From: a virus
Taxonomy: Duplodnaviria; Caudoviricetes
DNA length: 60,874 nt
Reading direction: 5' to 3' (one strand)
Virus record (IMG/VR): IMGVR_UViG_3300012913_000002
Coordinates: 1-60,874 of that record
The notes beneath the pieces are model-generated. The model did not search any database. It was given only the letters and a program-made list of their open reading frames with translations, and had not been told where the DNA came from. Positions within the stretch are counted from its first letter, which is position 1; each line of letters begins with the position of its first letter. Positions 5,857-41,534 of the stretch are shown here, piece after piece. The position numbers and the translations under genes were made by a program.

Positions 5857-6000
5857 GTGAGAACGGTCAAGCACAACCCGGACGACGCCGCCGAGGTGGC
5901 GGCAGTCCAGACACCACCCGGGGAACCGGATGGTGTACTCGTCGACCCGGAAAGCATTGACGGGGACGACGAATCGGTGGAGGAGGTGGTTCCCGAATGA
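5857..6000 (+). CDS. Small acidic hypothetical protein (47 aa)
   Basis: GTG start after GGGAGA; its TGA overlaps the endolysin ATG. Confidence 0.4.
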   Translation: MRTVKHNPDDAAEVAAVQTPPGEPDGVLVDPESIDGDDESVEEVVPE

Positions 6001-6905
6001 TGCTGACCCAGTTGGCGAACGTGGCCCGCCGCACTGGCTACCCGGTGATCGAGGTGCCGGGCTGGAAGACCAGGACCCGGCCGGGCGGGATGAGCAGCGT
6101 GCAGACCGTCACCTGCCACCACACCGCGAACGGCGGTGCCCGGGGAAACTACCCGAGCCTGCGAGTGGTTCGTGACGGGCGGCCCGGCCTGCCGGGGCCG
6201 CTGGCCCAGTACGGGCTCGGTCGGGACGGCACAGTCTTCGTCATCGCTGCTGGCCGGTGCAACCACGCCGGAGTGTCGCTGAAGACCGCCTACACCAACT
6301 CCAACGCGATCGGCATCGAGGCCGAGGCCGTGGGAGTGCCCGGCACCGAGGGCGACTGGCCCGCCAGGCAGATGGACTCCTACGCCCGGCTGTGCCTGGC
6401 CCTGGTGGAGGAGTTCGGCGCGGTTCAGATCGCAGACGTACTGGGGCACAAGGAGACCTGCTCCCCCAGGGGGCGCAAGTCCGATCCTTCGTTCAGTATG
6501 CCGAAGTTCAGGGAACGGATCGGCAACCTGACATCGGTGAAGAAACCCGTAAAGCCCACCCCAGCAAAGGATTTCATCGACATGGCAACTCAGGCAGAAG
6601 TCGAGGCAGCAGTCGTCAAGGGCGTCCTCAAGGTTCTCCAGACGGAGCAGATTGTCCCGAACGTTCCCACCCCGACGCAGGTCGCGGCCGACCCGAAGGT
6701 GAAGACCACCTACTACACACCGGTCGGTGCCTGGGCGAACATCGAGAAGGACCAGGACGTCGACCGGGACGCGACGAAATCGGACCGGGACAACCTCCGC
6801 ACGCAGGTGGCCGCGCTCGACTCGGCCGTGCGTGCCCTTACCACACAGGTGGCGGAACTGAGCGCTAAACTGAGCCCGCCTTCCACGCCTACCAAGGAGA
6901 ACTGA
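5997..6905 (+). CDS. Endolysin, N-acetylmuramoyl-L-alanine amidase (Amidase_2)
   Basis: TCHHTA, GPLAQY, IAAGRCNHAG, IGIEAE and VLGHKE...RKSDP zinc-amidase motifs. Confidence 0.9.
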   Translation: MMLTQLANVARRTGYPVIEVPGWKTRTRPGGMSSVQTVTCHHTANGGARGNYPSLRVVRDGRPGLPGPLAQYGLGRDGTVFVIAAGRCNHAGVSLKTAYTNSNAIGIEAEAVGVPGTEGDWPARQMDSYARLCLALVEEFGAVQIADVLGHKETCSPRGRKSDPSFSMPKFRERIGNLTSVKKPVKPTPAKDFIDMATQAEVEAAVVKGVLKVLQTEQIVPNVPTPTQVAADPKVKTTYYTPVGAWANIEKDQDVDRDATKSDRDNLRTQVAALDSAVRALTTQVAELSAKLSPPSTPTKEN

Positions 6906-6907
6906 TC

Positions 6908-7141
6908 ATGAGTGACGCCATTCCGAACTACCGCAAGAGCACGTTCTGGGCCGACTGGTTCGAGCGGGTCGCCTGGACCGCCGTCCAGGCCGGTGTCGGG
7001 GCCGTTTCCTACGCCCAGTGGGACGCCCCGCTCTGGTCGGTGCCGATCATCGCCGCTGGCCTGTCGGCCATCAAGGGGTGGGTCGCCCGTAAGGCCATCG
7101 CCGCGAACGAGGACAGCGCCAGCACGGTGCCCGGCGTCTGA
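6908..7141 (+). CDS. Holin (r1t-like)
   Basis: 77 aa, 'FWADWFERVAWTAVQA' signature, two TM segments, directly after the endolysin. Confidence 0.8.
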   Translation: MSDAIPNYRKSTFWADWFERVAWTAVQAGVGAVSYAQWDAPLWSVPIIAAGLSAIKGWVARKAIAANEDSASTVPGV

Positions 7142-7156
7142 CCCAGTCCGCACCAC

Positions 7157-7189
7157 AGAGCCCGGCCAGTCCTCCGCTGGCCGGGCTCT
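7157..7189 (+). terminator. Intrinsic terminator-like hairpin closing the lysis cassette
   Basis: AGAGCCCGGCCAG-7 nt-CTGGCCGGGCTCT. Confidence 0.7.
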
Positions 7190-7193
7190 TGCG

Positions 7194-7223
7194 TTGTCAT
7201 GAGGTTGTCAAGTCTGCTATGGT
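7194..7223 (+). promoter_or_regulatory. Promoter of the conjugation-like operon with two 11-bp-phased TTGTCA boxes
   Basis: TTGTCA(7194)-18 nt-TATGGT, second TTGTCA at 7205; GGAGG RBS before ATG 7262. Confidence 0.6.
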
Positions 7224-7261
7224 GTTAACAACATAGCGCATGACACCCACGGAGGAAACCC

Positions 7262-7543
7262 ATGCTTACGCAAGTGATGATCCTGGCTGAGCCGACGCTC
7301 AGCGCGGCCGAGACCAAGAAGTCCCTGATGGGTCTGATGCTGATCGCCATCAGCCTGGTCCTGGCCTACCTCACCCTGAAGGCCCTGCTCGGCCCGGCCC
7401 AGGGTGGCGACTACAACCGCACGCTCAAGATCGGGCTCGCCAGTGTGCTGGCGATGATCCCGCTCGGGCTCGGAGCCAGCGCCGTCGTGGCGATGGGCTA
7501 CGGCGAGGCCCTGATGAAGTTCGGCATCGGGCTGATCTCCTGA
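7262..7543 (+). CDS. Small hydrophobic protein, VirB2/TcpD-like pilin candidate
   Basis: 93 aa, two long TM segments, first gene of an operon containing a VirB4-like ATPase. Confidence 0.5.
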   Translation: MLTQVMILAEPTLSAAETKKSLMGLMLIAISLVLAYLTLKALLGPAQGGDYNRTLKIGLASVLAMIPLGLGASAVVAMGYGEALMKFGIGLIS

Positions 7544-8325
7544 TGCCGACCCAGCACGCGGACGACGCCGGGCGTCAGATCCGCCAGCCGTGGCTGGGAG
7601 CCAAGGGTGCCCGGTGGCCCTGGGACTGGACCTACAGCGAGTGGGGCCTGGCGGCAGCCGCCTTCACCATCGGCGGGACTCTGCTCACCTGGGCGATCCC
7701 CTCCGTGGTGGTGGCCTTCTTCGCCATTCGCTGGCTGGCGGACCTGCTCAGCAGGGCCACCGACAACCAGAAGCGTACCTACCGGCTCGTCGTGGCCTGC
7801 CTGGTCATGCTGTGCCTGATGTACTCGCTGGACTGGAGGACGTGGGTCAGCCCCATCTTCCTGCCGGTGGCTCTGCTGCTGTCCTTCATCATCCCCTTCC
7901 GGGCGGTGAAGTTGTGGGGCCGCTACATCACCTGGAACCGGCCGATCGGCTACTGGATGCGGCTGCCGTTCCAGGTCGCTCGCGGCCCCCGGCGTAACCG
8001 GCAGCGGATCATCGACCCGACCCCGCTGGCCATGAACCTGGAAGGCCTCAGCGACGAGACCGACGAGATCAAGCCGGGCCGGATCGTGACCGTCCCCCGG
8101 CCGAAGTGGGGCACTCCTTCACCGAAGCCCCGCGCGACGGTGCAGGACAAGCCGGTCGTCAAGGCGAAGATCAGCAAGGCTCCGAAGCGCCCGGCCAAGG
8201 TGCCGATGCGTGAGCGCAGCCCGCTGAAGCCGAGCGCCACCCCGAGAAAACGCCCCCGCCTCATCGAGCGCACGCCGCAGGGCATCCGCGTCGGCAAGAC
8301 CGAGTACCGCCTGGAGGACTACTGA
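7543..8325 (+). CDS. Membrane protein, VirB3/TcpE/PrgI-like position
   Basis: Trp-rich TM N-half and Pro/Lys/Arg-rich tail; translationally coupled immediately upstream of the ATPase. Confidence 0.45.
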   Translation: MPTQHADDAGRQIRQPWLGAKGARWPWDWTYSEWGLAAAAFTIGGTLLTWAIPSVVVAFFAIRWLADLLSRATDNQKRTYRLVVACLVMLCLMYSLDWRTWVSPIFLPVALLLSFIIPFRAVKLWGRYITWNRPIGYWMRLPFQVARGPRRNRQRIIDPTPLAMNLEGLSDETDEIKPGRIVTVPRPKWGTPSPKPRATVQDKPVVKAKISKAPKRPAKVPMRERSPLKPSATPRKRPRLIERTPQGIRVGKTEYRLEDY

Positions 8326-10994
8326 TGATGGGAAAGCCCAAGAAGACGGCGCTGCCTCGCACCACCGTGCTGGCATCGAACAGCAAGGAGATGGTCCGCA
8401 ATCTGATCCTGCGCAAGGACGGGACGGTCATCGCTGGCTACCGGATCGGTGACTCCCGCTGGGATTTCACCGGCAAGGACGCGAAGACGCTGGGGATCAC
8501 CCAGAGCGCCGACGTGTACGCCAACCTGACGGGCCGCGAGTTCGAGGAGCGGGTCTCCACCCGGCCGCACCCGGTGCAGACATGGGCGGCCAACCTGGAC
8601 GCCCGCACGCCGCGTCCGGCTCCGGACATGCACACCTGCGACCTGAGCATGAGCAAGGGCGACCTGCTCAACGGCAAGTGCGGCTGCGAGACGTGGGGCG
8701 CGCACCTGCTGCGGATGCAGGACCGGATCGCCCGGACCGGCATGGACGACAAGATCACCTTCCGCTACTTCTCGCTGAAGGCCCAGATGAACCCCCGGGC
8801 CGACCTGCACAAGCAGGTGAACGAGTACCTCGCCAACGGCAAGGCGTCCAAGGCGCTTCAGGCCGTGATCGAGGACGAGAAGCGCGTGCAGGACGTGGTG
8901 AAGGACTGGCCGGGCTCTCGCCGGATGAGCGAGTACGAGCAGGGCTGGCTGCGGGTGCGCTCGCTGTCGCCCGGCGTCCAGCCGACCGGCGTGCGCGCTG
9001 TCGGCCGCAACGGCTGGGACGAGATGGCCCTGCCGTCGCTGGGCAGCGACACCCGCTGGGAGGAGACGCCTTTCGGGCGGACCGTCAAGGTCACCTCCTT
9101 CAACGAGGGCAGGCAGACCGAGACCGCCGTGCGTGTGCTGTCACTGGCCCGCTGCGGCGACCTGCACTACCCGGAGAACGGGTTGCCGCCGTGGCAGGTG
9201 CTGTCCGAGTCGGCCGTCGACTCCAACGGCGTGCCCTTCTCCGTCGAATGGTCCATCAAGGGAAGGCTTCTCAGCGGCGAGGAACTGACCGCTCAGGTGG
9301 AGTTCGAGTTGCGCCGGGCTCAGTACATCCGGCGCGACTACGAGGAGCATGAGGAACTCCCCCCCACCGCCGTCGACAAGGCGATCGAGGTGGCCACCAA
9401 CACCCGCGACCAGGTGACGACCGGCCAGCAGGCCGACGCCGCCCGGTTCCTGGGCCAGGTGAACGTGATCATCACCGGTCAGGCGACGGCATCGCTCACC
9501 GCTGAGCAGGTGGTGGAGGAGCGCTGCGCCGCCTTCATCCGGATGTACGCGGGCAACGGTCTGCGGATGGACTTCGCCGGGGCCGACAGCCAGTCGTTCA
9601 TGCTGACCAGCACCGTGCCGGGCGAGCCTTACGACACGGTCGGCTACCAGCGCCGCCTGCGGCTGCCGTACCTGGCGGCCGGGATGCCCAGCGTCACCAG
9701 CAGTGTCGGCGACCAGCGTGGCCCGTACCTTGGTCACACCTCCGGTGCCAGCCGTCGTCCGGTGATGCATGACCCGCACTACGCCACCGAGGGCAAGAAG
9801 ACCGGCCGCGACGTCAACATGCACATCGCTGTCGGCACGCTCGGGTCCGGCAAGTCGGTCCTGTTCGGCTCGGTCTCCTACAACGCCGCACGCCGGGGCA
9901 TCAGAACGATCATCTCCGACCCGTCCGGTCCGCTGGCTGATCTGACGAAAATGCCTGAACTGGAAGGAGTCTCGCAGGAGATCAACCTGCTGAACGGTCG
10001 CAAGGGCATCCTGAGCCCGGCCAGTCTCATCCCCAACCCGGTTCGCGCCGACTACGAGGACGAGCAGGGCGGCTGGGCCGACGCCATCGAGCAGGTGCGG
10101 GCCGAGCGCCGGGAACTGACGATCGACATGGCCCTGCGCTGCCTGCCCGAAGACCTGGTGGCCGAAGGCAGCACCAACGCCGCCCGCACTCGCAACGTGC
10201 TGCGGCTGGCGGGTCGCCGCCACGGTGAACTGGCCAGTTGGGAGACCAGCACCACGTTCTGGGACCTGATCGAGCACCTGAAGACCTTGAAGGACGAGCA
10301 CGCCGACGCGGTGGCCGGTGCACTGGTGGACGCCAGCACTGCGCCGCTGCTGCGGCTGCTGTTCCCGGTGCCGGGCACCGAGGTCGCTACCGGCCACTAC
10401 GACAAGACCCTCACCGTGATCACCACCCCGGGGATCACGCGGGCTGTCGACGGCACGCCGCGCGCCGACTGGAACCCCACCGAGATCGGTGCCGACGCAG
10501 TGCTGCGGCTGACCGGCATGTTCACCAACCGGCTGATCTACTCGAAGGAGCGTGGCGAGCGCTGCGTGGCGATGTTCGACGAGGCTGAGTCGCTGACCGA
10601 CTTCGGGCCGGGCCGCTCCATGTTCTCGCGGCTGGGCCGGGACCACTCGAAGTGGAACATCGGTGTCTACATGGCCGTGAAACACATCAACTCGCAGATG
10701 CTTTCGGGTGAATTGAAGAACTTTCTCGCGTCGGTGTTCGTCGGCAAGATGGCCAAGGCCGAACCGGCGTACGACGCGCTGAAGTTGCTGGGCCTCAACG
10801 ACGAGCGGTACGTGAAGACCCTGCTGGCCCTGTCGGCGCACACTCCCGGCGAGTTCGTGCACGCCGACGTGGACGGCCGGATCGGTTCCCTGCGGGTCGA
10901 CGTGGACTACCACCCGGCCCTGAAGGCTGTCCTGCTGACCGACCCGACCCCTGAGGGCTCCAGCCACTGGGCTCTCGAAGAGGAGAGCATCTGA
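8325..10994 (+). CDS. virB4: VirB4-like conjugative transfer ATPase (AAA_10 type)
   Basis: 889 aa; Walker A GTLGSGKS past mid-protein, IISDPSGPL, Walker B VAMFDEAE, RDHSKWN and a C-terminal GEF..DVDGRIG, as in actinobacterial VirB4/ConE-like proteins. Confidence 0.8.
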   Translation: MMGKPKKTALPRTTVLASNSKEMVRNLILRKDGTVIAGYRIGDSRWDFTGKDAKTLGITQSADVYANLTGREFEERVSTRPHPVQTWAANLDARTPRPAPDMHTCDLSMSKGDLLNGKCGCETWGAHLLRMQDRIARTGMDDKITFRYFSLKAQMNPRADLHKQVNEYLANGKASKALQAVIEDEKRVQDVVKDWPGSRRMSEYEQGWLRVRSLSPGVQPTGVRAVGRNGWDEMALPSLGSDTRWEETPFGRTVKVTSFNEGRQTETAVRVLSLARCGDLHYPENGLPPWQVLSESAVDSNGVPFSVEWSIKGRLLSGEELTAQVEFELRRAQYIRRDYEEHEELPPTAVDKAIEVATNTRDQVTTGQQADAARFLGQVNVIITGQATASLTAEQVVEERCAAFIRMYAGNGLRMDFAGADSQSFMLTSTVPGEPYDTVGYQRRLRLPYLAAGMPSVTSSVGDQRGPYLGHTSGASRRPVMHDPHYATEGKKTGRDVNMHIAVGTLGSGKSVLFGSVSYNAARRGIRTIISDPSGPLADLTKMPELEGVSQEINLLNGRKGILSPASLIPNPVRADYEDEQGGWADAIEQVRAERRELTIDMALRCLPEDLVAEGSTNAARTRNVLRLAGRRHGELASWETSTTFWDLIEHLKTLKDEHADAVAGALVDASTAPLLRLLFPVPGTEVATGHYDKTLTVITTPGITRAVDGTPRADWNPTEIGADAVLRLTGMFTNRLIYSKERGERCVAMFDEAESLTDFGPGRSMFSRLGRDHSKWNIGVYMAVKHINSQMLSGELKNFLASVFVGKMAKAEPAYDALKLLGLNDERYVKTLLALSAHTPGEFVHADVDGRIGSLRVDVDYHPALKAVLLTDPTPEGSSHWALEEESI

Positions 10995-12781
10995 TGGCCA
11001 AGCACAAGGGGAACGCCCCTCGTTATGCGGCGCTGGTTCTGGTTCTTGTCCTGGCCGGGCTCCTGATCGGCATCTCCTTCGCCAGCCAGGCCAAGGCTGC
11101 CGCGCCGGAGGCTGGGAACATCCCCGGCGTCGAACTGTGTGACCCGGATGCGCCTTTCGCGCTGACTCCGGAGTCGGGTGTGGCTGGCCTGCTGGGTGAG
11201 CGGCCGAAGAAGATCACCACGGACAACAGCCCGGATCACATCTGGTCCACCGGGGGATTCGCGGGCCTGAAGTCGTACACCTACGACCTCGGCTGCAACC
11301 CGAAGGACTGGTTCCGGAACGCGAACGCCAATGGCGGGTCGGCATTCTCGAACCTGGTGATGTCGACCGGTGACGCGATGGTGTCGCTGGCGGACTCCAC
11401 CGACCGGCGTGCCTGGTCGCCGACCTGGGTGCTGTCGTTCCTGGACGACTTCGCCGAGCGGGCGATGGGGATGTCGAACACCCTGCTGATCGTGCCTTAC
11501 CTGGGGATCTCGCTGGCGGCTGTGACGATCCTGATGCTGCTGCGGGCGAAGGAGGGGGACATCAGCGCCCAGGCCAAGAGCACCGGCTGGATCATGGTGG
11601 TGCTGATGATCACCTCTGGCCTGCTGCTGTTCCCGATGATCACGGCCAAGGCTGGCAACCGGGTCGGCTACGAGTCGGTTGCGGTACTGAACGGCGGCGA
11701 CAACCCCTCGGACGCCATCACCAACCAGGTGGTGAAGAACGTCCAGTACCAGGGGTGGCTGCGGCGCAACTTCGGTGACGACACCGTCGCTGCCGAGAAG
11801 TACGGCCCGGCGCTGCTTTCCACGATCCGTGTCTCCTGGGCCGAGATGGACGCCATCGAGAAGAAACCGAAGAAGGATCGGGCGAAGGCTCGCGCTGCCC
11901 TGACGAACAAGAAGTCCGACCAGTTCAAGGGCATCGCCGCCGAGATCAAGAAGAACCACAAGAACGCCTACCGGCACCTGACCGGCGAGATCCAGGTGGG
12001 GCCGGTCGAGACCATCGTCGAGACGCTGTTCGTGGCGATGGCCTGCGTCCTGCGGATCGCCATCTCGATCCTCATGATCGCCTGTGTGATCAGCCTGACG
12101 ACCCTGGCGATCTTCTGGGTGGTGCTGACCCCGGTGCTGATCCTGCCGGAGACGAAGCGGTTCTCCGGTCAGCGGGTCGGCATGGGCCTGGTCAGTAACA
12201 GTTTCCTCACCGTGCGGTACGTGCTCGAAGCAGCCGTTGGCTCCTGGTTTTTCGGTCTGTACCTCCAGGCGTGCATGGCTCCGGGCCTGAACCTGTGGTG
12301 GTCGCTGCTGCTGCTGGTGCTCGGCACCATCGTGGCATGGCTGACGATCGCACCGTTCAAGAAACTGAAGTCGATCCTCAGTCTCGGCCGCGCGGACGGC
12401 ACCTCGTACATGGCCAAGGTCGCCAAGATGGCGATGGCCACCTACGCACCGATGGTGAGCGGTGCCGTCGCGGCCTGGCGGGTCAACAAGCACACCGACG
12501 ACAAGGCGGAGGAGGCCGAGGAGAAGTTGTCCGAGAACCGGCCGCAACCGCAGATCGTCGAGGCGAAGATCTTCAACCCCGGCGAAAGCCCGGACATGTG
12601 GTCGCACACCGAGCACCACCCCTTCGCCGACCGGGTGCTGCCTACGGGCGGGCCGCAGCCGTTGCCCGCCCGGCCGCTGTACCAGCGGGGCGACTCGGCA
12701 CCGCCTCCCCCGGAAGACCGCAAGGAAAGCCCTTACCAGCCCTATGAGCGCACTGACGACAACGAAGGAGCCCGGACATGA
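10994..12781 (+). CDS. VirB6/TcpH-like polytopic membrane protein
   Basis: Signal/TM N-terminus, extracytoplasmic region, about 6-7 TM segments, Pro-rich cytoplasmic tail; coupled to the virB4 stop. Confidence 0.65.
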   Translation: MAKHKGNAPRYAALVLVLVLAGLLIGISFASQAKAAAPEAGNIPGVELCDPDAPFALTPESGVAGLLGERPKKITTDNSPDHIWSTGGFAGLKSYTYDLGCNPKDWFRNANANGGSAFSNLVMSTGDAMVSLADSTDRRAWSPTWVLSFLDDFAERAMGMSNTLLIVPYLGISLAAVTILMLLRAKEGDISAQAKSTGWIMVVLMITSGLLLFPMITAKAGNRVGYESVAVLNGGDNPSDAITNQVVKNVQYQGWLRRNFGDDTVAAEKYGPALLSTIRVSWAEMDAIEKKPKKDRAKARAALTNKKSDQFKGIAAEIKKNHKNAYRHLTGEIQVGPVETIVETLFVAMACVLRIAISILMIACVISLTTLAIFWVVLTPVLILPETKRFSGQRVGMGLVSNSFLTVRYVLEAAVGSWFFGLYLQACMAPGLNLWWSLLLLVLGTIVAWLTIAPFKKLKSILSLGRADGTSYMAKVAKMAMATYAPMVSGAVAAWRVNKHTDDKAEEAEEKLSENRPQPQIVEAKIFNPGESPDMWSHTEHHPFADRVLPTGGPQPLPARPLYQRGDSAPPPPEDRKESPYQPYERTDDNEGART

Positions 12782-13284
12782 AGGAATGGATCTTCGACAG
12801 CCCGGAGAGGATGAAACTGGTGGCCATCGGGCTGGCAGTGCTGTCCGTGGTGCTGATGGTCGCCCTGACCCTGAACCGGGTGGCCGGAAGCGGCGGCGGG
12901 CGGGACATGGCTCCGGCCCCGGTGGTGTCCGACGAGCCGTACACCGGCCCCACGGACCTTGTGCCGCCGTCTCCGGCCCCGGAAGGAGCCTCCCCTACTC
13001 CTGACTACGGCAGCAGCGCCGGGATCGCCCTGGAGGCCGTCAACGCCTTCCTGCTGAACGACAGCACCCGGTTCGCCGAACTGGCACAGCCGGAAGCGGT
13101 CGAGGGAATCAACGAGGCACCGGCCCGGCCAGCAGGGCAGGAAGTCACCGGCCGGGTCAAGACCCTGCTGCCCGGCCCCACCCGTCAGCAGGTGCTGGTG
13201 CCCACCACGGACGGCGACCTGGTGCTGGACATGGTGGTCATCGACGGCGCGTGGAAGGTCATGAGCATCGAGTACGCACGATGA
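12778..13284 (+). CDS. VirB8/TcpC-like bitopic membrane protein
   Basis: Single TM, Pro-rich linker, NTF2-like C-terminus ending ...DGAWKVMSIEY. Confidence 0.5.
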   Translation: MKEWIFDSPERMKLVAIGLAVLSVVLMVALTLNRVAGSGGGRDMAPAPVVSDEPYTGPTDLVPPSPAPEGASPTPDYGSSAGIALEAVNAFLLNDSTRFAELAQPEAVEGINEAPARPAGQEVTGRVKTLLPGPTRQQVLVPTTDGDLVLDMVVIDGAWKVMSIEYAR

Positions 13285-13463
13285 GCGGCCGGATGATCGC
13301 CAGCGCGATCTTCTACCTGGTGCTCGGCGTCATCATGCTCGTCCGGTCGGCAATCCTGCTCGTGGAGCCGGGTTTTCAGATCGACTCCACCCTGCTCGTC
13401 ATGGCTGGTTGCTCCTGGTTCCTCTGGGGAATCCACTTGATGATCAAGGAGATCACCCGATGA
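13281..13463 (+). CDS. Small two-TM membrane protein
   Basis: ATGA overlap with the previous stop; hydrophobic, 60 aa. Confidence 0.5.
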   Translation: MSGRMIASAIFYLVLGVIMLVRSAILLVEPGFQIDSTLLVMAGCSWFLWGIHLMIKEITR

Positions 13464-13549
13464 GCGCGGCCGAATGGACAGTCGTCATCATCTCCTCAGC
13501 CATCGGGGTGCTCATCGTCCTGATCTACGACAAGGCGGTCCGCCGATGA
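13460..13549 (+). CDS. 29-aa single-TM peptide (MSAAEWTVVIISSAIGVLIVLIYDKAVRR)
   Basis: ATGA overlaps at both ends; below the ORF-track length cutoff. Confidence 0.5.
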   Translation: MSAAEWTVVIISSAIGVLIVLIYDKAVRR

Positions 13550-14532
13550 ACAACGCGGGCAAGGTCGCAGGGGCATTCGCAGCAGTGGCCGGGCTCGCGG
13601 CGGCACCGCTGATGCTGATGTCCGTGCTCTACTCCGGCCCTCCGCAGGCCAGCCTGGACGCTGAACTGACGCAGTGCACCGTCTCCGCCGTCATCAAGCC
13701 AGCCGGAGCGCTTCTGGGGGCCAAGGACATCGGCGCGCTGGCCTACAACACCGGCTGGCGTGGCGAGGACGTGGACATCGCGGTGGCTGTCGCGCGGGCG
13801 GAGTCCGGCTGGAACCCCAGGGCCACCAACAAGAACAGCAACGGCTCCGTGGACTACGGCCTGTTCCAGATCAACTCGATCCACGCAGCGATCCTGGCCG
13901 GTGGCAACTGGGCCGACCCGGAGGACAACGCGAAGATGGCCTTCAAGGTCTGGGAGGACGCGGGCGGCAAGTGGGGACCGTGGGTCACCTACTGGTCCGG
14001 CACGTACAAGAAATTCCTGAAGGAAGACGTGGTTTCGCCGACGTGCCGCCAGCCGATCGCACCGATCGAGGCGAAAGGTGCCTGCGGGCCGGTGAAGAAG
14101 GGCTACCCGAACGGGCAGATCCCCCGCTCGGCCCTCTGCTCGCTGTGGGCCAACCGCAACCACTACCTCCGAGGGGATGCGGCGGCGAAGTTCGACGCGC
14201 TGTCGAAGGCCTTCGCGGCCGAATTCGGTGTGGCACCATGCATGACCGACTCCTACCGCTCGTACGCCGCTCAGGTGGACGTGCGACGGAGGAAGGGGCC
14301 GGGTATGACCGCCGACCCCGGCACCAGCAACCACGGATGGGGGATGGCCCTGGACCTGTGCGCTCCTGGCACCCAGGACAATCCGAAGCCGTGGCCGGGC
14401 TCTGAGCGGTATGAGGTGTGGATGTACCAGAATTTCGACAAGTATGGCTGGACTCATCCAAAATGGGCCAGGACTGGCGGATCTCGCCCCGAGCGGTGGC
14501 ACTACGAGTGCAACTCGTGTGGTGCGAAGTGA
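13546..14532 (+). CDS. Bifunctional cell-wall hydrolase: SLT lytic transglycosylase + M15 (VanY-like) peptidase; VirB1/CwlT analogue
   Basis: N-terminal TM; AVARAESGWNPRATN...DYGLFQINS (SLT); DSYRSY..Q, PGTSNHGWGMALD, ERWHYE (M15). Confidence 0.85.
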   Translation: MNNAGKVAGAFAAVAGLAAAPLMLMSVLYSGPPQASLDAELTQCTVSAVIKPAGALLGAKDIGALAYNTGWRGEDVDIAVAVARAESGWNPRATNKNSNGSVDYGLFQINSIHAAILAGGNWADPEDNAKMAFKVWEDAGGKWGPWVTYWSGTYKKFLKEDVVSPTCRQPIAPIEAKGACGPVKKGYPNGQIPRSALCSLWANRNHYLRGDAAAKFDALSKAFAAEFGVAPCMTDSYRSYAAQVDVRRRKGPGMTADPGTSNHGWGMALDLCAPGTQDNPKPWPGSERYEVWMYQNFDKYGWTHPKWARTGGSRPERWHYECNSCGAK

Positions 14533-14771
14533 ATCCTTATGATGCTCTCGGGGTGGCGGCCTTCCGGGAACTGCGAGCGCAAGACGAACTGAAGGCCGCC
14601 AGGAAGGCCAAGCAGGAGGCTCTGCGGGCACTGCACGCCACCGGCATCCCGAAGTGCAAGGTCGGATCGCTGGCCCGGGACGACCTGGCGATGCACGGCT
14701 TCGGGCCGGAACTGATCGCCCGGCTGGCGCTCTCGGATGCCAGTGTCAGGCTGGTGCTCGACCAGAAGTAA
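14529..14771 (+). CDS. Hypothetical protein, last gene of the operon (possibly DNA-binding)
   Basis: GTGA overlap with the hydrolase stop; helical 80 aa. Confidence 0.5.
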   Translation: MNPYDALGVAAFRELRAQDELKAARKAKQEALRALHATGIPKCKVGSLARDDLAMHGFGPELIARLALSDASVRLVLDQK

Positions 14772-14773
14772 AG

Positions 14774-14807
14774 GAACGGCCCCCACCAGATCTGGTGGGG
14801 GCCGTTC
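14774..14807. terminator. Perfect 34-bp palindrome, bidirectional terminator between convergent genes
   Basis: GAACGGCCCCCACCAGATCTGGTGGGGGCCGTTC. Confidence 0.75.
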
Positions 14808-14809: not shown

Positions 14810-15947
14810 TCATTTCCTCGCAGGCTGGCTGGTGAGGTGGAACCAGGGACAGAAGTCGCAGCGGTAGTACCTGATCGGGATCGGCTCGTCCGGGTCATTC
14901 TTGGCGTTGGAGCGGATCTTTCCCAGTGCGTACGCCGCCCGGATCTCGTTCCGGAAGGACTTCTTACCTGTGGCCTTACAGCGTTTCATAGTCGGGGTCG
15001 TGGACGTGCGGCTCGTAGAAGTCAGCCGTCTTGTGCTCCGGGGCGTGCAGATCGGCGTGATCCTTCTCCAGCCCGGCCAGTGACTGCTCGTCGCTGGTGG
15101 TGCCGTGGAAGATCCGCAGGTGAGCCAGCAGGCTGCCAGGGTCCGGGAACGAGACCGGCGTCTTCCAGGGAGCATTCTTGTTCGCCCCCTGCTTGCCGAC
15201 CTCAATCCCGCCGAACTTCGTGGCAATCAGCCCTTGAGCCACAGCCATCTCCACGTTCGGGTCCTGTTGCGGTGCGGGCGGTTCGGGCCTGCTGACCACC
15301 TTCACCGGCCCGGTACGCTCGCCGGTCCATTCTCCCTTGCCGGGGGAGGAGATGGTGAACAACGGGGGAGCGGCCTTCAGTACCGTCCAGGCCCGGCCAG
15401 TCTTGTCCTCCACCACCCAGCGCTTGCGGACCTCACTCCAGACGCTCCAGTCACTCCAGTCAGCCACCACGAGGCACCTCGAATTCGACCCGGATGCCCA
15501 GTCCTGCAAGGTCTTCCAGGTACTTGTCGTCGGGCTGGTTGTGGATCTCGCCGAAGGTGTTGCGCAGTTCCTGGATCGCCCGCTTGCGGTTCTCCCATTC
15601 GGTCGGCACGCGGAACTTCGACCGGCCACCGTAACGGCGGCCCGCCGACGCGGGCATGTTCACGATCATCTTGATGGTCATCAGATCGCCACCATCACCG
15701 GGTAGGAATTCTCGTGATAGGGGTCAGGGACGACCAGCCAGAAGCCGGTGGCGTCCGAGCGGACCTCGTTCTGCTTGCCCGCATCCCAGGCGGCCTTGAC
15801 CGCGTCGATGCAGGTCGGCCCGTGCCGCCAGTAGTCGCTCATGTCGAGCGCGACTTCGTACTTCCACTTGCCACTGAAGCCTTCCGACTCCGGCCTGCGC
15901 ACGAACAGAAGTCCACGCACAAGGCCGTCATTGACGGCGTATCCCAT
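14810..15947 (-). CDS. Operon of four small hypothetical ORFs (14810-14989 Zn-finger 'YRCDFCPWFHLTS', 14976-15467, 15460-15681, 15681-15947)
   Basis: Overlapping start/stop junctions; GAGGGAGG RBS before 15947. Confidence 0.55.
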
Positions 15948-16559: not shown

Positions 16560-16790
16560 CGTCACACCCTGCGTCACAAGATCATTTCGGAAGGCCCGGA
16601 TCGGGTAAATCTACGGAGAGTGAGAAAGATCTTGAAAATCTCACGCGAGCCTCTGACCTGGGGTGTCACACCTGTCACAGCCTTCAAATTCAGCCCACGT
16701 GAGGAAACTGAAAAAAAACTGAGTAAGTTTGCTGTGACACCTGTGACAGCAACTCTCCGTAGTCAGTTGAACTAGGTCAAATCGGACACC
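16560..16790. other. Putative replication origin A: paired TGTCACA iterons inverted around an A/T-rich core
   Basis: GGGTGTCACACCTGTCACAGC (16661), A8-containing core, GCTGTGACACCTGTGACAGC (to 16750); non-coding, immediately upstream of the primase-helicase. Confidence 0.65.
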
Positions 16791-30188: not shown

Positions 30189-30538
30189 CCGAGTTGCTCG
30201 ACCGGCTTGAAGTGCCCGTTGAGGCGCAGTGCGTCCGCCAGGTTGGCATGGTCGCCGACCAGCGGCTGGCCGTAGGGCGCTGAGACGCGGGCAACCCACC
30301 GGTCGAACGTCTTCGGTTGCGCGGGCGTGGTGAGGATGAAGGCCTGATCGTTCCGGCTGGCCCACCATGCTCGCGCGAAGGCCGAAGCCGCCCGGCCACC
30401 AGCGGTATTCGCCTCGGGGCAGTCGATGCCTTCGAGCCGGATGTGCTGGTGGGTGTGCACCCAGAAGCCGAGGTCGATGTCGAGCACGAACGTGTCGCCG
30501 TCGATCAGCCGGAGCAGCCTCGCCTCGTACTGGTACAT
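30185..30538 (-). CDS. Thermonuclease (SNase-like)
   Basis: RLIDGDTF.LDIDLGF...IRLEGIDCPE...FDRWVA. Confidence 0.8.
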   Translation of the reverse strand: MYQYEARLLRLIDGDTFVLDIDLGFWVHTHQHIRLEGIDCPEANTAGGRAASAFARAWWASRNDQAFILTTPAQPKTFDRWVARVSAPYGQPLVGDHANLADALRLNGHFKPVEQLG

Positions 30539-30834
30539 CAGTAGGCCTTCACGGTGCCGATCCGGTAGACCGGTGCCTCCGGGTCGTCGGCGTAGCGGAC
30601 CCAGGCGGTGTACTTCCGCCCGGCCGTCAGCGGGAAGTCCGTGCCGGTGCCGACGAGGATGCCCCGCTCGCCACCGAGCACGGTGGGGTCGGCCCAGTCC
30701 AGTGGCCGGGCTCCGGGCGCAGTGAGCGTCACCTCGAACTCGGTGGTCTCCTCGCCGTCCGCCGTCACGGTGATCGGGCCGACCCATTCCTTCGTCTCGG
30801 CGGCGACCAGCCATGCCGTCAGTTCGTCAGCCAT
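30538..30834 (-). CDS. Small Ig-like putative virion protein
   Basis: Beta-rich 98 aa; 'YTAWVRYADDPEAPV' is typical of phage structural adaptors. Confidence 0.45.
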   Translation of the reverse strand: MADELTAWLVAAETKEWVGPITVTADGEETTEFEVTLTAPGARPLDWADPTVLGGERGILVGTGTDFPLTAGRKYTAWVRYADDPEAPVYRIGTVKAY

Positions 30835-32059
30835 CCTGTGCTCCCAGTGTCGCGGCGATCCGGCCCGGCTCTCCCAGGGCACTGACGATCCTCTGCTGCT
30901 CCGCCAGTGTCGCAGCCACCTGGACATCCCGGGGCGGAGGAAAGACTCTCCAGCGGGCGCTCAGGGCCGCTGAGACCCCATTGCGGACCAGCCATTCGAC
31001 GTCCAGATCCGACGCCAGCCGGTTGCGAACCAGCCACTGCCCGGCCAGGTCGGTCTCCACCCGGGAGAAGGATTTCCACCGCAGGTCGGCATCCGATGCG
31101 AGGACTTTGCGCACCAGCCACCGCAGGTCGGCGTCGGCCGCGACGGCGTTGCGGACCAGCCACTGCCCGGCCAGGTCGCTGGCCACCAGGTTGCGCACCA
31201 GCCAGCGGTTGTCGAGGTCGGACTGGACCTGAGCGAATGATCTCCAGCGGGCGTCGAGGTCGCTGAGCAGAGTTGAGCGTACGCCCCAGCGCAGGTCCGC
31301 GTCCGACGTGAGCGCGTTGCGGACCCGCCAGCGGGCGTCGGAGTCGCTGCTGATCCCGTTGCGGACCAGCCACCGCTCGTCCGAGTCGCTGAAGATCGTG
31401 CTCAGCGCCTCCGGCCCGATCTCCGCCTCCCGGCCGGAGTCGAACCGGACACTGTCGATGTCGACGGTGGCGGCGACCGTGGTGCCGTTCGCGGTGATGC
31501 CGTGGATCACCTGGAACATGCCGGTCGTGCCCATGTCGTAGGCGCTGGAGGTGGTGGCCGCAGCCAGCGCGGTGGTGCCCTCGTTGTCGTAGATGTTCAC
31601 CCGGAGCACACCCGTGGTAGAGGTCGCCACGGTCGCCACGGTCTCCACCCGGTACCAGGTGTTCAGGCTCAGCGCGGCGGCGTGGGTGAGCGTCCCGGCC
31701 CCGGCTTGGTTCTGGATCTGCAACCGGTTGGTGGAGCCGTTGTAGTTGAACGACATGATGTTGCCGAACGCGGCGTTCTGCGGGATGACGATCCGCTTGG
31801 TCGTGGCGAAGCCGGTGGGGATGCGGAACTTGAACGACAGCGCGAACTGGGTGCCGGTGACGGCCGGGCTGGTGGTGCGGCAGGTGACGTTGGTGGCCGG
31901 GACGCTGTAGGAACCGGCGAACGATCCGTAGGCCGCGCTGGAGGTGGACACGGCGGTGCAACTGGCACCGATCGACACCGTGCCCCCGGTGTTGGCGTTG
32001 GTCAGCGTCGTGCCAGCAGGCCCGGTCGCCTCATAGTCACAGGCTGTCGTCTTGGCCAT
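30827..32059 (-). CDS. Putative virion fibre: lectin/LamG-like head plus 11 x 14-aa Trp repeats
   Basis: Thr-rich N-domain (LNTWYRVE); repeats SD(L/A)DxRWxVRNxxx. Confidence 0.55.
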   Translation of the reverse strand: MAKTTACDYEATGPAGTTLTNANTGGTVSIGASCTAVSTSSAAYGSFAGSYSVPATNVTCRTTSPAVTGTQFALSFKFRIPTGFATTKRIVIPQNAAFGNIMSFNYNGSTNRLQIQNQAGAGTLTHAAALSLNTWYRVETVATVATSTTGVLRVNIYDNEGTTALAAATTSSAYDMGTTGMFQVIHGITANGTTVAATVDIDSVRFDSGREAEIGPEALSTIFSDSDERWLVRNGISSDSDARWRVRNALTSDADLRWGVRSTLLSDLDARWRSFAQVQSDLDNRWLVRNLVASDLAGQWLVRNAVAADADLRWLVRKVLASDADLRWKSFSRVETDLAGQWLVRNRLASDLDVEWLVRNGVSAALSARWRVFPPPRDVQVAATLAEQQRIVSALGEPGRIAATLGAQDG

Positions 32060-32589
32060 TACGGCAGCGTGTCGCCGGAGACGCGCAGCACCACACCGTC
32101 AGGGTTCAGCGCGGCAGCGCCAGCAGTCACCACTCGCCGCAGCCAGATGCCCTTGACCTGGCCGGGCGCGAGGTCGCCGATGGTCAGCGGGCCGGAGCCG
32201 AACGCGCCGATGCTGGAGGGGGTGCTGGTCTCGCTGGCGATCTGCGCCGCCTGCGCACCGGCCGACCCCTTGGCGCTCGCGGCGATGTTGTCGAGGGCGA
32301 TGGTGACCGTGCCGCCTCCGGCCGTCTCCGACTGCACGGCGATCGTGGCGGAGTAGAGGGTGAGCGTGGCGTGGTTGTTCAGGATGAAGATGCAGCGGTA
32401 CTCGGTGGAACCGGCCGCCGCCTCCGCGCCGGACACGTCGTCGAACACGTTGCCGGGGGTGGCGTCGGTGATCGCCGTCGTGCTGACGTACTTCCCGAGC
32501 GAACCGGCTGGCGTGCCAGCGGTGGAGTCCCCGGCTGAACCGGTGACCACCGACAGGCGTTTGACAATGTCGCTGGCAACGATGGCCAT
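32059..32589 (-). CDS. Putative virion structural protein
   Basis: SLGKY.S, NVFDDVSG.E, EYRCIF, IGDLAPGQVKGIWLRR pattern recalled from phage structural proteins. Confidence 0.5.
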   Translation of the reverse strand: MAIVASDIVKRLSVVTGSAGDSTAGTPAGSLGKYVSTTAITDATPGNVFDDVSGAEAAAGSTEYRCIFILNNHATLTLYSATIAVQSETAGGGTVTIALDNIAASAKGSAGAQAAQIASETSTPSSIGAFGSGPLTIGDLAPGQVKGIWLRRVVTAGAAALNPDGVVLRVSGDTLP

Positions 32590-37106: not shown

Positions 37107-38774
37107 TCATGCTGTGATCAACTCCTTGAACTCGTCGGGCAGTTTCGTGCGGGGCATTCCGAGGCGCAGGAGGGTGGTCCAGTCCTCGGCGGTGTTCTCC
37201 TCCTTGTTGTCGGCCGGGTCCGGAGTCCAGTAGGCCTGTATCTCCTCGGCGATGCCATTGTCGATCTGAAGTGTGGTGCGGCCTTTCAGATCCTCCGGGA
37301 TGTCCCGGCCAATGGAGGAGTTGCCGAACACCATCTTGGCGGCGTCGGCGGTGATGCCGCCGACCGCCGCACGTCCCTGGAGGTTGTCCCGGGCCGCTCC
37401 ACCGAACCAGGATGCGTCCGGGCGCTGGGTGCCGATGATCAGGTGGATGCCGCACAGCCGGGCCATGGCCAGCACGCGCATGATCTTGCGGTGAGCCGGG
37501 GAGAACTTCCCGCTCTGCTTGTACGGCTTGCCGTCCTCGTCCCGGGCATCCCCGGCCCAGTAGTCAAGCATCCGGTACACCCACTCCTCGAACTCATCGA
37601 GGATGACGATCCGCCTGCGGTGAGCACTGAAGGGGATCTTCTTGTGCTTGCGCAGTCGGTAGCGATTCATCATGTCCTCGTACAGATCGAAGGCCATGTC
37701 CCAGAGTTCGTCATCCTCAGAGTAGATCCCGAGCACTCCATCCCAGCCCTCAAACCCCAGCAGTTCCACCAGTTTCGGGTCAGCGAGCATCAACTCGGTG
37801 CCCTTGTCCTTCCTGGCCGTGTCAATCGCAGCGCAGACCAGGGAGCGCATCAGGGCGGTCTTGCCAGCGTTCGTCCGGCCAATGATCAGGATGTGACTGG
37901 TGACGTTGAGGTTGAAGTGGTGGCCGGGTGCTACCGGAAGAATGTTCCAGGGCCGGTCCGGGTCGAAGCCAGGGTGGTGAATCTTGTCAGGCAACTGCGG
38001 ACGCCGGGTGAAGCGCACCATGTCATTCTTGGTGTCCCACACCGGCATCCAGCGGTCGCCGAGTTTCGCCTGGATCTTCAGCAGGGCCTCGTACTGCTTG
38101 TCGTCCTTGTGGTCCTCGAAGCCGGTTCCCTTGTAGAAGACGCTGAAGCCGTCCATGCCCACGACGTCGCACACGTTGACCTGCCCGGCATTGCCGACCA
38201 GTTCCCGGAATGCCTCCTCGATCCGCTCAGTGTCGAGTTCGGGTTCGGCTGGTTGGTCGGGCTCTGCCTTCGGAGCCGATTCTGTCGGAATGACTCTCCG
38301 GGGGCGGCGGCGTCTCCAGCCTTTCTGGACCAAATAAGTGCCGAATGCCGCGCCGATGGACAAGCCCGACCACTGCAACCAGTCCATGGCTTCTGCATGG
38401 TCCTGCCGGAACACCTCCTGCCAGGTGTAGCCCGAGAGCATGATCGTGCCGGAGGCGTAGGTGAAGAAGGGTTTCCAGTTACGCGGCACACGGTTTCGCC
38501 GGGCGCGAGCCTGAGCCTCCTTGCGGGTCTTCTTCTTGTGGCAGGAGTTGATCCAGGTGGAACCCTTCGGCGCACACAGTAACTGGAGGTTCGCAGGATC
38601 GCTGCGCTGCTCGGGAGTACTCTCCACCTCCGGCACGATGTGGTCGATCTGGAGAGCGTTGCGCACGAAGTACTTCCGGCATCCGTCGCACTGGAACTTG
38701 CTGGGATGCCTCGGGTCCTGGCGAGCGTCGAAGATCGCCGTGCGGACCTGCGGATCAATCTTGGTCAGGCTCAC
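37107..38774 (-). CDS. HNH nuclease - TM - FtsK/SpoIIIE ATPase fusion (TcpA/TraB-like DNA translocase)
   Basis: CDGC...IDHIVP...NLQLLC...CHKKKT (HNH); two hydrophobic segments; HILIIGRTNAGKT, LADPK..EL, IVILDEF, ARLCGIHLIIGTQRPDA (FtsK). Confidence 0.85.
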   Translation of the reverse strand: MSLTKIDPQVRTAIFDARQDPRHPSKFQCDGCRKYFVRNALQIDHIVPEVESTPEQRSDPANLQLLCAPKGSTWINSCHKKKTRKEAQARARRNRVPRNWKPFFTYASGTIMLSGYTWQEVFRQDHAEAMDWLQWSGLSIGAAFGTYLVQKGWRRRRPRRVIPTESAPKAEPDQPAEPELDTERIEEAFRELVGNAGQVNVCDVVGMDGFSVFYKGTGFEDHKDDKQYEALLKIQAKLGDRWMPVWDTKNDMVRFTRRPQLPDKIHHPGFDPDRPWNILPVAPGHHFNLNVTSHILIIGRTNAGKTALMRSLVCAAIDTARKDKGTELMLADPKLVELLGFEGWDGVLGIYSEDDELWDMAFDLYEDMMNRYRLRKHKKIPFSAHRRRIVILDEFEEWVYRMLDYWAGDARDEDGKPYKQSGKFSPAHRKIMRVLAMARLCGIHLIIGTQRPDASWFGGAARDNLQGRAAVGGITADAAKMVFGNSSIGRDIPEDLKGRTTLQIDNGIAEEIQAYWTPDPADNKEENTAEDWTTLLRLGMPRTKLPDEFKELITA

Positions 38775-40347: not shown

Positions 40348-40695
40348 TCAACCTCCGATGGTGCCGGTGTGGCCCCGGCCGAATCCACCCCGGAGCACCG
40401 TGCCGCCACTCTTGCTGGCACCGCCGACCTGGGCGTAATGCCCCTTCGGCAGGGTGCTGACGTAGCCACTCGAAAGTGGCTGGCCCACGGCCGGATACGA
40501 CCGGCCGATCGGGTAGTAGACGAACCCGTGGCCGTGGTGCTCGTCGTCGCACCGATCCTCGTCCAGGCGGACCTGCGTCTGCTTGTCCACGCAGACCGCC
40601 TGATGGTCCGGCTTCGGGTCCTCACCGCAGCCGGACAGGGCCAGGGCGGCGAACGCAGCCGTCCCGGCCGCCGTTACCTTCGCACTTCTCCTCAT
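40348..40695 (-). CDS. Lipoprotein with 'AVCVD...RC' and C-terminal RGGFG motif (DUF1190/YgiB-like)
   Basis: Lipobox LSGC; HQAVCVDKQTQVRLDEDRC; RGGFG...GG end. Confidence 0.6.
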   Translation of the reverse strand: MRRSAKVTAAGTAAFAALALSGCGEDPKPDHQAVCVDKQTQVRLDEDRCDDEHHGHGFVYYPIGRSYPAVGQPLSSGYVSTLPKGHYAQVGGASKSGGTVLRGGFGRGHTGTIGG

Positions 40696-41534
40696 GCCTT
40701 CTCGTACTCCTTGTTCCATCGGCCGAGCATCGTCTGCGCGGCGGCGGGCGTGATCTCCTTGTCCATCTCGTTCTTCATCGCTCGCACAAGATCCTCGGGC
40801 GTGAAGGTCCGCTGCTTCTCCCGGGATTCGACGAACGCAGGCCAGACCGGGTGCTCGCGCGGTGGGTAGCGCTTGCGCTCCGTAGACGTCTTCTGCGGCC
40901 CCAGCGTTGCTTTCACCTTCGGACGACGCTGAACCGGGGGCGTTGGCGGAGTCCGGGGGACCGCAGGCGGCTCATGGTCCACCACCACGGTTCCGGAAGG
41001 CTTCATGTCGGCCAATAGGTGAGCCAACTCGCCGCGCCAGTCGGGGAACGCCCCGATCTCGCCCGCAGGCGCAGCCGGGGGCTTCGCAGACTCGGTGGCC
41101 GGGCTTTTCGGGAGCAGGAGGGCTGCGGTGCCGCCGAACATGAGTCCGTCGATCAGCAGGGCCGTCAGGACCGCCGTGAGCCAGTTGAGCCGCCCGTCCC
41201 AGGTGCCGATGTCGGAGTTGCGGTTGTGCATCACCACGGACACCAGGTGGATGAAGGACACGACGGCGCTGGCGGGTGCGACCACCCACAGCAGCACCGA
41301 CACGACGCGCGGACCCCACTTCGCGTCGTCCCACGGGTTGTGGTTGGCCAACTCGATCAGCAGGAACGCCGCCAGCGGCGGCAGGCCCGCGATCCCGATG
41401 TCGACCCACGTCGGGTCCGGGGAATGCAGGTAGGCGGCAGTCACGTTCCCGGCCAGGGACACCCCGAGCGCCACGAGGACGCTGACGTAGCCCCAGAACC
41501 GGCCGACGGTGGTGCGCGGGATGCGCTTGGTCAT
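40692..41534 (-). CDS. DUF2637/SpdA-like four-TM protein with C-terminal cytoplasmic domain
   Basis: VSLAGNV, GLPPLA..L.IEL, AVVSFIHL and LLIDGLM motifs; Pro-rich linker; helical C-terminus. Confidence 0.6.
   Translation of the reverse strand: MTKRIPRTTVGRFWGYVSVLVALGVSLAGNVTAAYLHSPDPTWVDIGIAGLPPLAAFLLIELANHNPWDDAKWGPRVVSVLLWVVAPASAVVSFIHLVSVVMHNRNSDIGTWDGRLNWLTAVLTALLIDGLMFGGTAALLLPKSPATESAKPPAAPAGEIGAFPDWRGELAHLLADMKPSGTVVVDHEPPAVPRTPPTPPVQRRPKVKATLGPQKTSTERKRYPPREHPVWPAFVESREKQRTFTPEDLVRAMKNEMDKEITPAAAQTMLGRWNKEYEKA

Follow-up and report, generated by a model that had tools for sequence, protein, structure and literature searches.

Phages and conjugative elements are usually treated as two separate routes of gene transfer. 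Does one operon in the IMG/VR virus record IMGVR_UViG_3300012913_000002 bring the two together in a single tailed phage? The record, a metagenome-derived fragment of 60,874 bases, was analysed in its entirety and is called the window below. Its positions 7194-14807 hold a plus-strand operon of eight genes (7.5 kb), here called the cassette, which includes an 889-aa ATPase of the VirB4 family of type IV secretion systems (T4SSs). That the cassette encodes a real, native and functional T4SS-like channel is very probable. The fuller statement, that it is a native accessory module encoding a relaxase-less, monoderm-type T4SS-like translocon whose likely cargo is phage DNA, stands evenly poised when taken as a whole. 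The features of the operon and its borders are as follows (ORF, open reading frame).

7169-7191 (+): GC-rich hairpin 3' of the holin gene, terminator of the lysis genes
7194-7223 (+): promoter, two TTGTCA boxes 11 bp apart, 18-nt spacer, TATGGT -10
7262-7543 (+): ORF1, 93-aa peptide with two transmembrane segments; TcpD/TcpE-like or 'VirB2' slot by position only
7543-8325 (+): ORF2, 260-aa membrane protein with three transmembrane segments; candidate VirB3-like partner of VirB4
8325-10994 (+): VirB4-family T4SS ATPase, 889 aa, by Pfam, profile and predicted fold
10994-12781 (+): ORF4, 595-aa polytopic protein with six hydrophobic segments; VirB6-like by position and topology
12778-13284 (+): ORF5, 168-aa bitopic protein with one N-terminal transmembrane segment; NTF2-like domain, VirB8-like architecture
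13251 or 13281-13463 (+): peptide of 60-70 aa with two transmembrane segments; translation probably begins at the coupled ATG, 13281
13474-14532 (+): membrane-anchored bifunctional wall hydrolase, 352 aa, one N-terminal transmembrane segment; SLT_3 and VanY/M15 domains
14553-14771 (+): ORF8, 72-aa soluble product, last gene of the operon
14774-14807 (no strand): perfect palindrome with a 15-bp stem, likely two-way terminator

The VirB4 operon

The genes of the cassette are translationally coupled, with stop/start overlaps of 1 or 4 nt at 7543, 8325, 10994 and 12778, and all reading frames are intact. This agrees with a preliminary description of the locus, made from its letters alone, which had reported a coupled operon without frameshifts directly after the amidase-holin terminator. 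The promoter and palindromic terminator claimed there are likewise present: the TTGTCA-N5-TTGTCA pair at 7194-7210 forms the -35 region of a promoter-like site, followed by its -10 box, and the palindrome closes the operon. The phased-box pattern recurs in the window: 11 loci give 22 matches, counting both strands, where shuffled sequences predict 0.07, so that the sharing of these boxes with other promoters holds as well, at a count different from the roughly 17 others first given. The proposed gene order is right for all main ORFs, with two corrections: the supposed pair of transmembrane peptides is one peptide with two transmembrane segments, and the 72-aa ORF at 14553-14771 had been overlooked. 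The GC content of the module (0.66-0.68) lies within the usual range for the window.

By its sequence and predicted fold, the 889-aa protein is a true VirB4. It carries a Walker A motif (GTLGSGKS) at residue 504 and a Walker B motif (VAMFDE) at residue 748, and all 19 aligned VirB4 sequences share G507, G509, K510, D752 and E753. Pfam AAA_10 is matched at 62.3 bits against a gathering score of 27.5, over residues 483-868 and model positions 6-361 of 362, and all 50 homologues of the ATPase carry PF12846. The top NCBIfam match is TcpF, the pCW3 ATPase (9.2e-13), which at 47 bits stays below its cut-off of 1100, and VirB4_plasma, at 17.8 bits, stays below its cut-off of 590; both models are built narrowly around proteins from Firmicutes or Mycoplasma. 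A single-sequence search of the PDB gave no match, and a profile of 19 ATPase sequences placed the VirB4 C-terminal domain 4AG5 first (2.3e-6). The AlphaFold (AF2) model has a mean confidence (pLDDT, predicted local distance difference test) of 87 and a predicted template-modelling score (pTM) of 0.82. When this model was searched with Foldseek, ranks 1-14 were all TrwK/VirB4 chains of R388 (E 5e-21 to 8e-11), and ranks 1-13 were full-length alignments of 880-936 columns. The best chains other than VirB4 were DndH-C (5.5e-9), HerA (3e-8) and TrwB (9e-7). The initial assignment to VirB4 is upheld by the agreement of AAA_10, the profile and the fold search.

An identity as HerA or as a packaging ATPase was considered for the same protein and is ruled out, since Foldseek ranks TrwK/VirB4 first by far, with DndH-C, HerA and TrwB trailing by at least eight orders of magnitude in E.

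Membrane partners and wall hydrolase

The proteins around VirB4 fit a T4SS channel by place and shape. In ORF2, a conserved N-terminal motif precedes the transmembrane helices, and homologues of ORF2 lie directly 5' of VirB4 in 14 other loci, seven viral and seven bacterial. ORF1 has homologues in five related viral loci and no family match in Pfam, PHROG or NCBIfam; for both proteins, Pfam gave nothing meaningful at E 1. A complex prediction for ORF2 (residues 1-140) with VirB4 (1-450) returned a median of 0.46 (runs of 0.47, 0.00 and 0.46), against 0.00 for the best of three controls, with a partner pLDDT of at least 55 and run agreement of at least 0% of contacts. In the calibration of this score, 58 of 80 solved complexes and 2 of 110 mismatches passed the mark, and just 7 of the 80 solved complexes, together with both mismatches, passed it with 0.60 or less; the value is thus weak support for contact and is not relied on.

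ORF4 has a homologue directly 3' of VirB4 in 79 other loci. None of 31 members matched any Pfam family, TrbL included, its profile found only chance rows in the PDB (E 0.14 or above), and its alignment to TcpH by hhalign was weak (probability 14%). Its neighbours in the ESM Atlas are actinobacterial clusters with TrbL/VirB6 in 11-25% of members, one of which matches the ORF4 model at a template-modelling (TM) score of 0.71. On position, topology and these neighbours, ORF4 is called VirB6-like rather than VirB6. The AF2 model of ORF5 (pLDDT 85.7) consists of a transmembrane helix, a linker and a domain of three helices and four strands, and in Foldseek every top-ranked match to it has an NTF2 or cystatin-like fold (E 3e-3 to 5e-2); an IcmL-like T4SS protein is among them. 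No sequence match to Pfam VirB8 was seen at E 1, and hhalign against TcpC gave a probability of 0.1%. The predicted ORF5 structure has the architecture of VirB8, and ORF5 is a candidate member of that family by fold class. The 60-70-aa peptide has no homologue outside the window in single phmmer passes, the method behind all homologue counts of cassette ORFs, so distant homologues of the small ORFs may be missed. The core first described as VirB2/VirB3/VirB4/VirB6/VirB8 is accordingly firm for VirB4, whereas the other labels rest on size, topology, fold class and language-model neighbours.

The operon also encodes a dedicated wall hydrolase, a feature of monoderm conjugative T4SSs. The 352-aa protein combines a lytic transglycosylase domain (SLT_3, 3.8e-17) with a VanY/M15 peptidase domain (1.8e-10) in Pfam, and homologues occur in seven related viral loci and in L013. 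The slot is kept and its domains vary: a Streptomyces plasmid has NlpC/P60 there, and bacterial cassettes have M23. ORF8, which follows it, is conserved in four of seven related viral loci (L002, L008, L009 and L017), with nothing meaningful in Pfam at E 1.

The carrier phage and its complete relatives

The left end of the window falls within a minor-tail gene (2-2473, open at its 5' end), and a tail protein at 3027-4109 matches phrog_1887 (6.6e-46). Between these genes and the cassette lie the lysis genes.

5997-6905: Amidase_2 endolysin, upstream of the cassette (Pfam/PHROG match)
6908-7141: holin, between the endolysin and the cassette

The region downstream of the cassette encodes a Prim-Pol/D5 primase-helicase and an exonuclease, along with numerous small genes. 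The window itself contains no gene for head or packaging functions. Gene by gene, it aligns collinearly with the related IMG/VR record G001 (80,684 bp, CheckV 100%), with amino-acid identities of 33-79%. G001 extends beyond the left end of the window with tape measure, major head protein, scaffold, protease, portal and the large terminase, TerL; because G001 supplies head genes past that end, the window is a truncated phage genome and not a headless element. The check for capsid and terminase genes proposed at the outset thus fails for the fragment and succeeds for its complete relatives. None of the 21 G001 ORFs at 63,758-80,617 has a homologue in the window. TerL is present in six of seven related IMG/VR records, with pairwise identities of 62-89% among the six; in the five related records searched it is 67-88% identical to that of G001, and the seventh record, which has no TerL, is a 36%-complete fragment. 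Direct terminal repeats occur in the related record G011. The lineage appears to comprise tailed phages of roughly 70-81 kb, with Actinomycetota (high-GC Gram-positive bacteria) as putative hosts.

Distribution and native status of the cassette

Relatives of this VirB4 occur in bacterial genomes, and the phage copies form a separate group. With one genome per bacterial species, relatives were found at no fewer than 596 loci; the best 80 of these at least 596 loci are all in Actinomycetota, with VirB4 identities of at most 34%. Among 120 plasmid records, the nearest copies are 26-29% identical. Much closer are the VirB4 copies of seven IMG/VR records (41-69% identical) and 40 metagenome proteins (42-95%) on contigs of up to 76 kb. 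A tblastn search of 50,697 phage records with VirB4, a set from which close relatives of the window may be missing, found none at 1e-5. With blastn and the module as query, just three records of this set matched, at 70% identity along 140 bases of the hydrolase. A FastTree phylogeny of 140 VirB4 rows, 77 of them from bacterial genomes and with rows shorter than 700 aa (L056, L061 and L067) left out, places the window, the seven viral loci and the 40 metagenome proteins in one phage-type clade of 48 rows. This clade has a Shimodaira-Hasegawa-like support of 100 and a stem length of 1.0, and it contains none of the 77 bacterial-genome rows.

On these comparisons, the cassette is native to the phage lineage and is not an inserted integrative and conjugative element (ICE), because it occupies the same locus throughout, its VirB4 is monophyletic and diverges together with TerL, its promoter uses phage boxes, and integrase, attachment-site repeats and relaxase were not found. 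Same locus and same junctions were seen in all eight viral records of the clade, which come from different assemblies. Pairwise identities of TerL and VirB4 among six phages are correlated (r = 0.78), a value matched or exceeded in 11 of 720 permutations. Between the window and G001, VirB4 is 69% identical, the primase 61% and the exonuclease 71%. Together, the gene tree and these identities show the VirB4 cassette as vertically inherited with the phage backbone. The box pair stands directly upstream of the cassette in four of seven related viral loci, G001 included, and hairpin and box pair are carried with the cassette in four of seven relatives, an arrangement read in L002, L008 and L009. 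Tape-measure, tail and lysis genes lie directly 5' of the cassette in L008, L009, L010 and L017, which supplies the tail-lysis-VirB4 synteny that had been suggested as a search. Relative to the tail genes and the primase, the cassette of G001, with its promoter and nothing else, is inverted.

Pfam searches of the 90 window ORFs (27 plus 63, scanned at E 1e-3 or looser) detected no integrase, relaxase, partition or VirD4 family, and no repeat pair brackets 7194-14807. The preliminary description had said as much of integrase, attachment sites, relaxase and VirD4, and this stands; it had passed over an FtsK-family gene at 37107-38774 (-), discussed below. A Logan contig of sequencing run X1 spans 6370-10344, and thus the lysis-module junction, without any difference. 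It supports continuity at 7.15 kb and is not independent, because X1 is probably the source sample. Runs X2 and X3 of a second study, labelled RNA-Seq and probably DNA, hold short pieces of relatives that are 90-99% alike. The earlier view of a native, co-regulated phage module thus finds agreement in locus, tree, co-divergence and promoter boxes.

Some related loci differ around the cassette. In the cassette of G004 (L010:14939-17340), three further genes separate the NTF2-type gene from the hydrolase gene. Their homologues in the window, at 32059-32589, 30827-32059 and 30538-30927 (74%, 34% and 57% identity), occupy the minus strand (30538-32589) at a distance of 16 kb downstream from the cassette. 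The 410-aa protein of this block has SDxDxRW repeats of about 14 aa, and hydropathy indicates no signal peptide or transmembrane segment in the three-gene block, which may be tied to the channel or may be a mobile, fibre-like block. A gene convergent with the cassette, at 14976-15629 (-), adjoins it also in L008, L009, L010 and L017 (34-66% identity); no homologue was found in G001. In L013-L016 (IMG/VR records G007-G010), a cellular-type VirB4, 28-32% identical, is accompanied by a VirB6-like gene, and an FtsK-like gene follows within a few kb. Two of these four records are classed as proviruses, and a distant TerL (31-33%) was seen just in G007 and G010; they may represent ICEs beside prophages or a second, separate association of phage and T4SS.

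A candidate DNA pump

An FtsK-like translocase, a feature of TraB-type conjugation, is present in the window.

37107-38774 (-): HNH nuclease fused to an FtsK/SpoIIIE motor, 555 aa; candidate pump or coupling protein, unlinked to the cassette

The protein, HNH-FtsK, matches Pfam HNH (2.2e-7) and FtsK_SpoIIIE (6.1e-9) and an FtsK-like PHROG family (9.6e-24), and BLASTP aligns it with the TcpA coupling protein of pCW3-type plasmids at 7e-12. The best plasmid match of its motor reaches 144 bits (E 7e-34), compared with 67 bits (2e-9) for the best phage record. HNH-FtsK was found in four of four near-complete relatives.

In G004, the homologue (G004:C1:56545-58077) contains one internal TAA within the match. 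A 292-aa protein at 40692-41570 (-) has four hydrophobic segments and is conserved in G001 (42% identity). Pfam gave nothing for it at E 1, and its nearest ESM Atlas clusters are DUF2637 (score 0.85), a lead only for a likeness to the Spd (spread) membrane proteins of TraB-type conjugation.

Proposed role and alternative explanations

The proposed mechanism begins in the infected cell, where VirB4 would dock on the small transmembrane proteins, the VirB6-like protein and the bitopic NTF2 protein. The SLT and M15 hydrolase would open the wall locally, and the complex could then form a channel to a touching cell or a neighbouring compartment. Phage DNA would be the most likely cargo, fed by the HNH-FtsK motor, and the outcome would be contact-dependent spread beside virions. 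DNA fed by an FtsK-type pump is favoured because the nearest plasmid cassette pairs its channel with an FtsK/TraB-type pump, and because, according to PMC2782261, the cassette of plasmid SLP2 is needed for conjugal transfer. That the cargo is DNA and the purpose the cell-to-cell spread of the phage is a tentative proposal, somewhat short of even. The strongest form of the idea is more doubtful still: these would be dual-mode viruses that make virions and also use VirB4 and HNH-FtsK to push replicating DNA into touching cells or hyphal compartments, which would make them the first conjugative tailed phages.

Several observations weigh against DNA transfer by this channel. The label 'conjugative phage', offered as a candidate when the locus was first presented, stays tentative, with no relaxase and no VirD4-type coupling protein among the 90 window ORFs and a distant HNH-FtsK as the lone coupling candidate. 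HNH-FtsK lies 22 kb from the cassette on the opposite strand and shows no strong transmembrane segment by simple hydropathy. FtsK-like genes occur in 175 phage records that have no VirB4 match, and in the 80 bacterial-genome loci a search with this query showed no FtsK homologue within 10 kb of VirB4, so the cassette is not generally tied to such a pump. The VirB6, VirB8 and VirB3 assignments fail sequence tests (Pfam, PDB profile and hhalign). Five bacterial genomes with the nearest TerL, at 53-64% identity among 401 sampled, have no phage-type VirB4, and the module is therefore dispensable, that is, accessory, for such phages. Finally, the Streptomyces cluster cmdABCDEF, according to PMC2782261, acts in sporulation and segregation and not in transfer, so that a non-conjugative role has a precedent.

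The same lack of a relaxase and VirD4, the 0 of 80 loci with a nearby FtsK and the action of cmdABCDEF in sporulation would fit a channel that exports phage proteins for take-over, anti-defence or anti-competitor functions, or that partitions DNA in the manner of Cmd, with no conjugation of the genome. This explanation, to which the relaxase-less VirB4 systems of monoderms (noted in PMC3548315) and the proposed translocon of SPP1 gp32 with gp31.1/31.2 (PMC6316719) also lend support, is less likely than not. The operon encodes no evident effector, its sole soluble product being the 72-aa ORF; the nearest plasmid cassette adjoins FtsK and ParA; HNH-FtsK is kept in all four near-complete relatives; and an SLP2 cassette of this general kind, alike by description in PMC2782261, is needed for transfer. 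Control of entry, whether as superinfection exclusion, as a block to competing plasmids or phages, or as DNA uptake, is improbable. T4SS-derived DNA import does exist in the Ced system, according to PMC12282955, and phage-type promoter boxes would suit a host-takeover regulon, yet a module of eight genes and 7.5 kb would be an expensive means of exclusion, and no recognisable exclusion-type lipoprotein or surface protein was seen.

Two further explanations question whether the module works for a phage at all. The cassette could be passive cargo or an artefact, that is, a recent ICE or plasmid insert, a decaying remnant or a chimeric assembly, given that the window is a metagenomic fragment and that in G001 the cassette behaves as a discrete unit, inverted once. 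This is largely refuted and very improbable: the junctions recur in eight of eight viral records, the X1 contig runs through 6370-10344, the frames are intact, VirB4 identity to G001 lies in the range of core genes and follows TerL, and neither attachment-site repeats nor an integrase were found. Even less credence is given to a conjugative plasmid or ICE with tail-like genes, resembling a tailocin or a gene transfer agent. The window has no head genes, and the G001 ORFs at 63,758-80,617 have no counterpart in it (0 of 21); however, the window is cut inside a tail gene, its relatives carry a full head, packaging, tail and lysis set, TerL is present in six of seven of them and direct terminal repeats in one, and families for plasmid replication, partition or relaxase were not found. 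ParA/ParB or Rep families, which are features of phage-plasmids, were not found in the 90 window ORFs, and the Prim-Pol/D5 helicase is also common in phages. The reading of the operon as a native T4SS-like translocon, with phage DNA as its tentative cargo, is the one carried forward here.

Other features of the window

An inverted repeat pair of 88 nt, 83% complementary, lies at 16661-16748 and 52042-52129, 35 kb apart. One copy stands between the cassette and the primase gene and is a candidate origin or transfer site. At 56994-60239, a GC-rich hairpin element of 56 nt is present in five copies, 73-88% identical to the reference copy, and a direct repeat of 261 nt (59604 and 60187) lies in the small-gene array at the right end of the window. 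Pfam on the 63 smaller ORFs recognised two Endonuclease VII proteins, one DUF7178, one YdjM-like membrane protein and an Ion_trans_2 protein (2e-6), the last probably the 123-aa ORF at 54811-55182.

Implications

A whole tailed-phage lineage keeps a T4SS-like channel and an FtsK-type pump with frames and catalytic motifs intact. If DNA is moved, host range would no longer be set by receptors alone, sensitivity to antiserum or DNase would no longer define viral spread, and infection could spread in filaments or aggregates without free particles. Such a channel would be a bacterial counterpart of plant-virus movement proteins, bypassing receptors and extracellular decay. If proteins are moved instead, the cassette would represent a new type of secretion system encoded by phages. 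It also offers a compact, relaxase-less actinobacterial T4SS for structural work.

Comparison with known systems

According to a 2025 review, no conjugative phage-plasmid or prophage is known, and the term 'conjugative prophage' has been applied to Phi1207.3 (PMC4260502). The literature holds no description found here of a tailed phage with a T4SS cassette, with an earlier listing in supplementary tables (e.g. PMC7969092 Table S4) being possible. A partial precedent is provided by phage SPP1, for which PMC6316719 describes gp32 as a large ATPase that the phage can do without and that resembles TrwB, VirB4 and FtsK in HHpred, and proposes it, with the small membrane proteins gp31.1 and gp31.2, as a trans-membrane translocon of unspecified cargo. 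SPP1 lacks VirB6-like, NTF2-type bitopic and hydrolase genes. The window VirB4 has a weak PHROG match to phrog_24614 (9.7e-8); that this family links it to SPP1 is a guess.

In fold, the closest counterpart of the ATPase is TrwK/VirB4 of R388 (8RTD, 7O43 and 8RTB), which it matches over its full length at TM scores of 0.57-0.62, despite a sequence identity of 10-13%. R388 is a diderm system with an outer-membrane core and pilus genes, unlike the window cassette, which has neither. The tcp locus of pCW3-type plasmids of Clostridium perfringens (mating-pair formation class MPF-FA) matches in its parts, by annotation: TcpD/TcpE, the VirB4 TcpF, the hydrolase TcpG, the polytopic TcpH, the bitopic TcpC and the FtsK-family coupling protein TcpA, and tblastn with the window VirB4 reaches these plasmids at E of about 5e-7. 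It differs in gene order and in its TcpM-type relaxase, which the window does not have; moreover, ORF5 shows no similarity to TcpC, and ORF4 a weak one to TcpH.

In actinomycetes, PMC2782261 describes cmdABCDEF as a chromosomal VirB4-like cluster of Streptomyces that affects sporulation and chromosome segregation and not plasmid transfer, and the SLP2 plasmid cassette as one of this general kind that is required for conjugal transfer. Both resemble the window cassette, by description only, in their co-transcribed membrane proteins and VirB4-like ATPase, whereas neither resides in a virus and cmd works in sporulation and segregation. On the 45.8-kb linear plasmid NZ_CP029542.1 of Streptomyces sp. 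NEAU-S7GS2, the order is two small proteins, the ATPase, a 784-aa protein, a 177-aa protein and an NlpC/P60 hydrolase, with FtsK/SpoIIIE and ParA adjoining. Bacterial loci L036 and L041 have the same cassette order with M23 hydrolases at the end. In the window, by contrast, the FtsK motor is part of an HNH fusion encoded 22 kb from the cassette, the carrier is a tailed virus, the hydrolase is of SLT and M15 type instead of NlpC/P60 or M23, and VirB4 is just 26-34% identical, the phage copies forming their own clade. The likeness to mating-type cassettes that had been claimed from gene order is nevertheless sustained: NZ_CP029542.1 and the Microlunatus, Nocardioides and Kineosporia loci share the order of the window cassette, and their VirB4, polytopic protein and ORF2 are sequence homologues of those of the phage.

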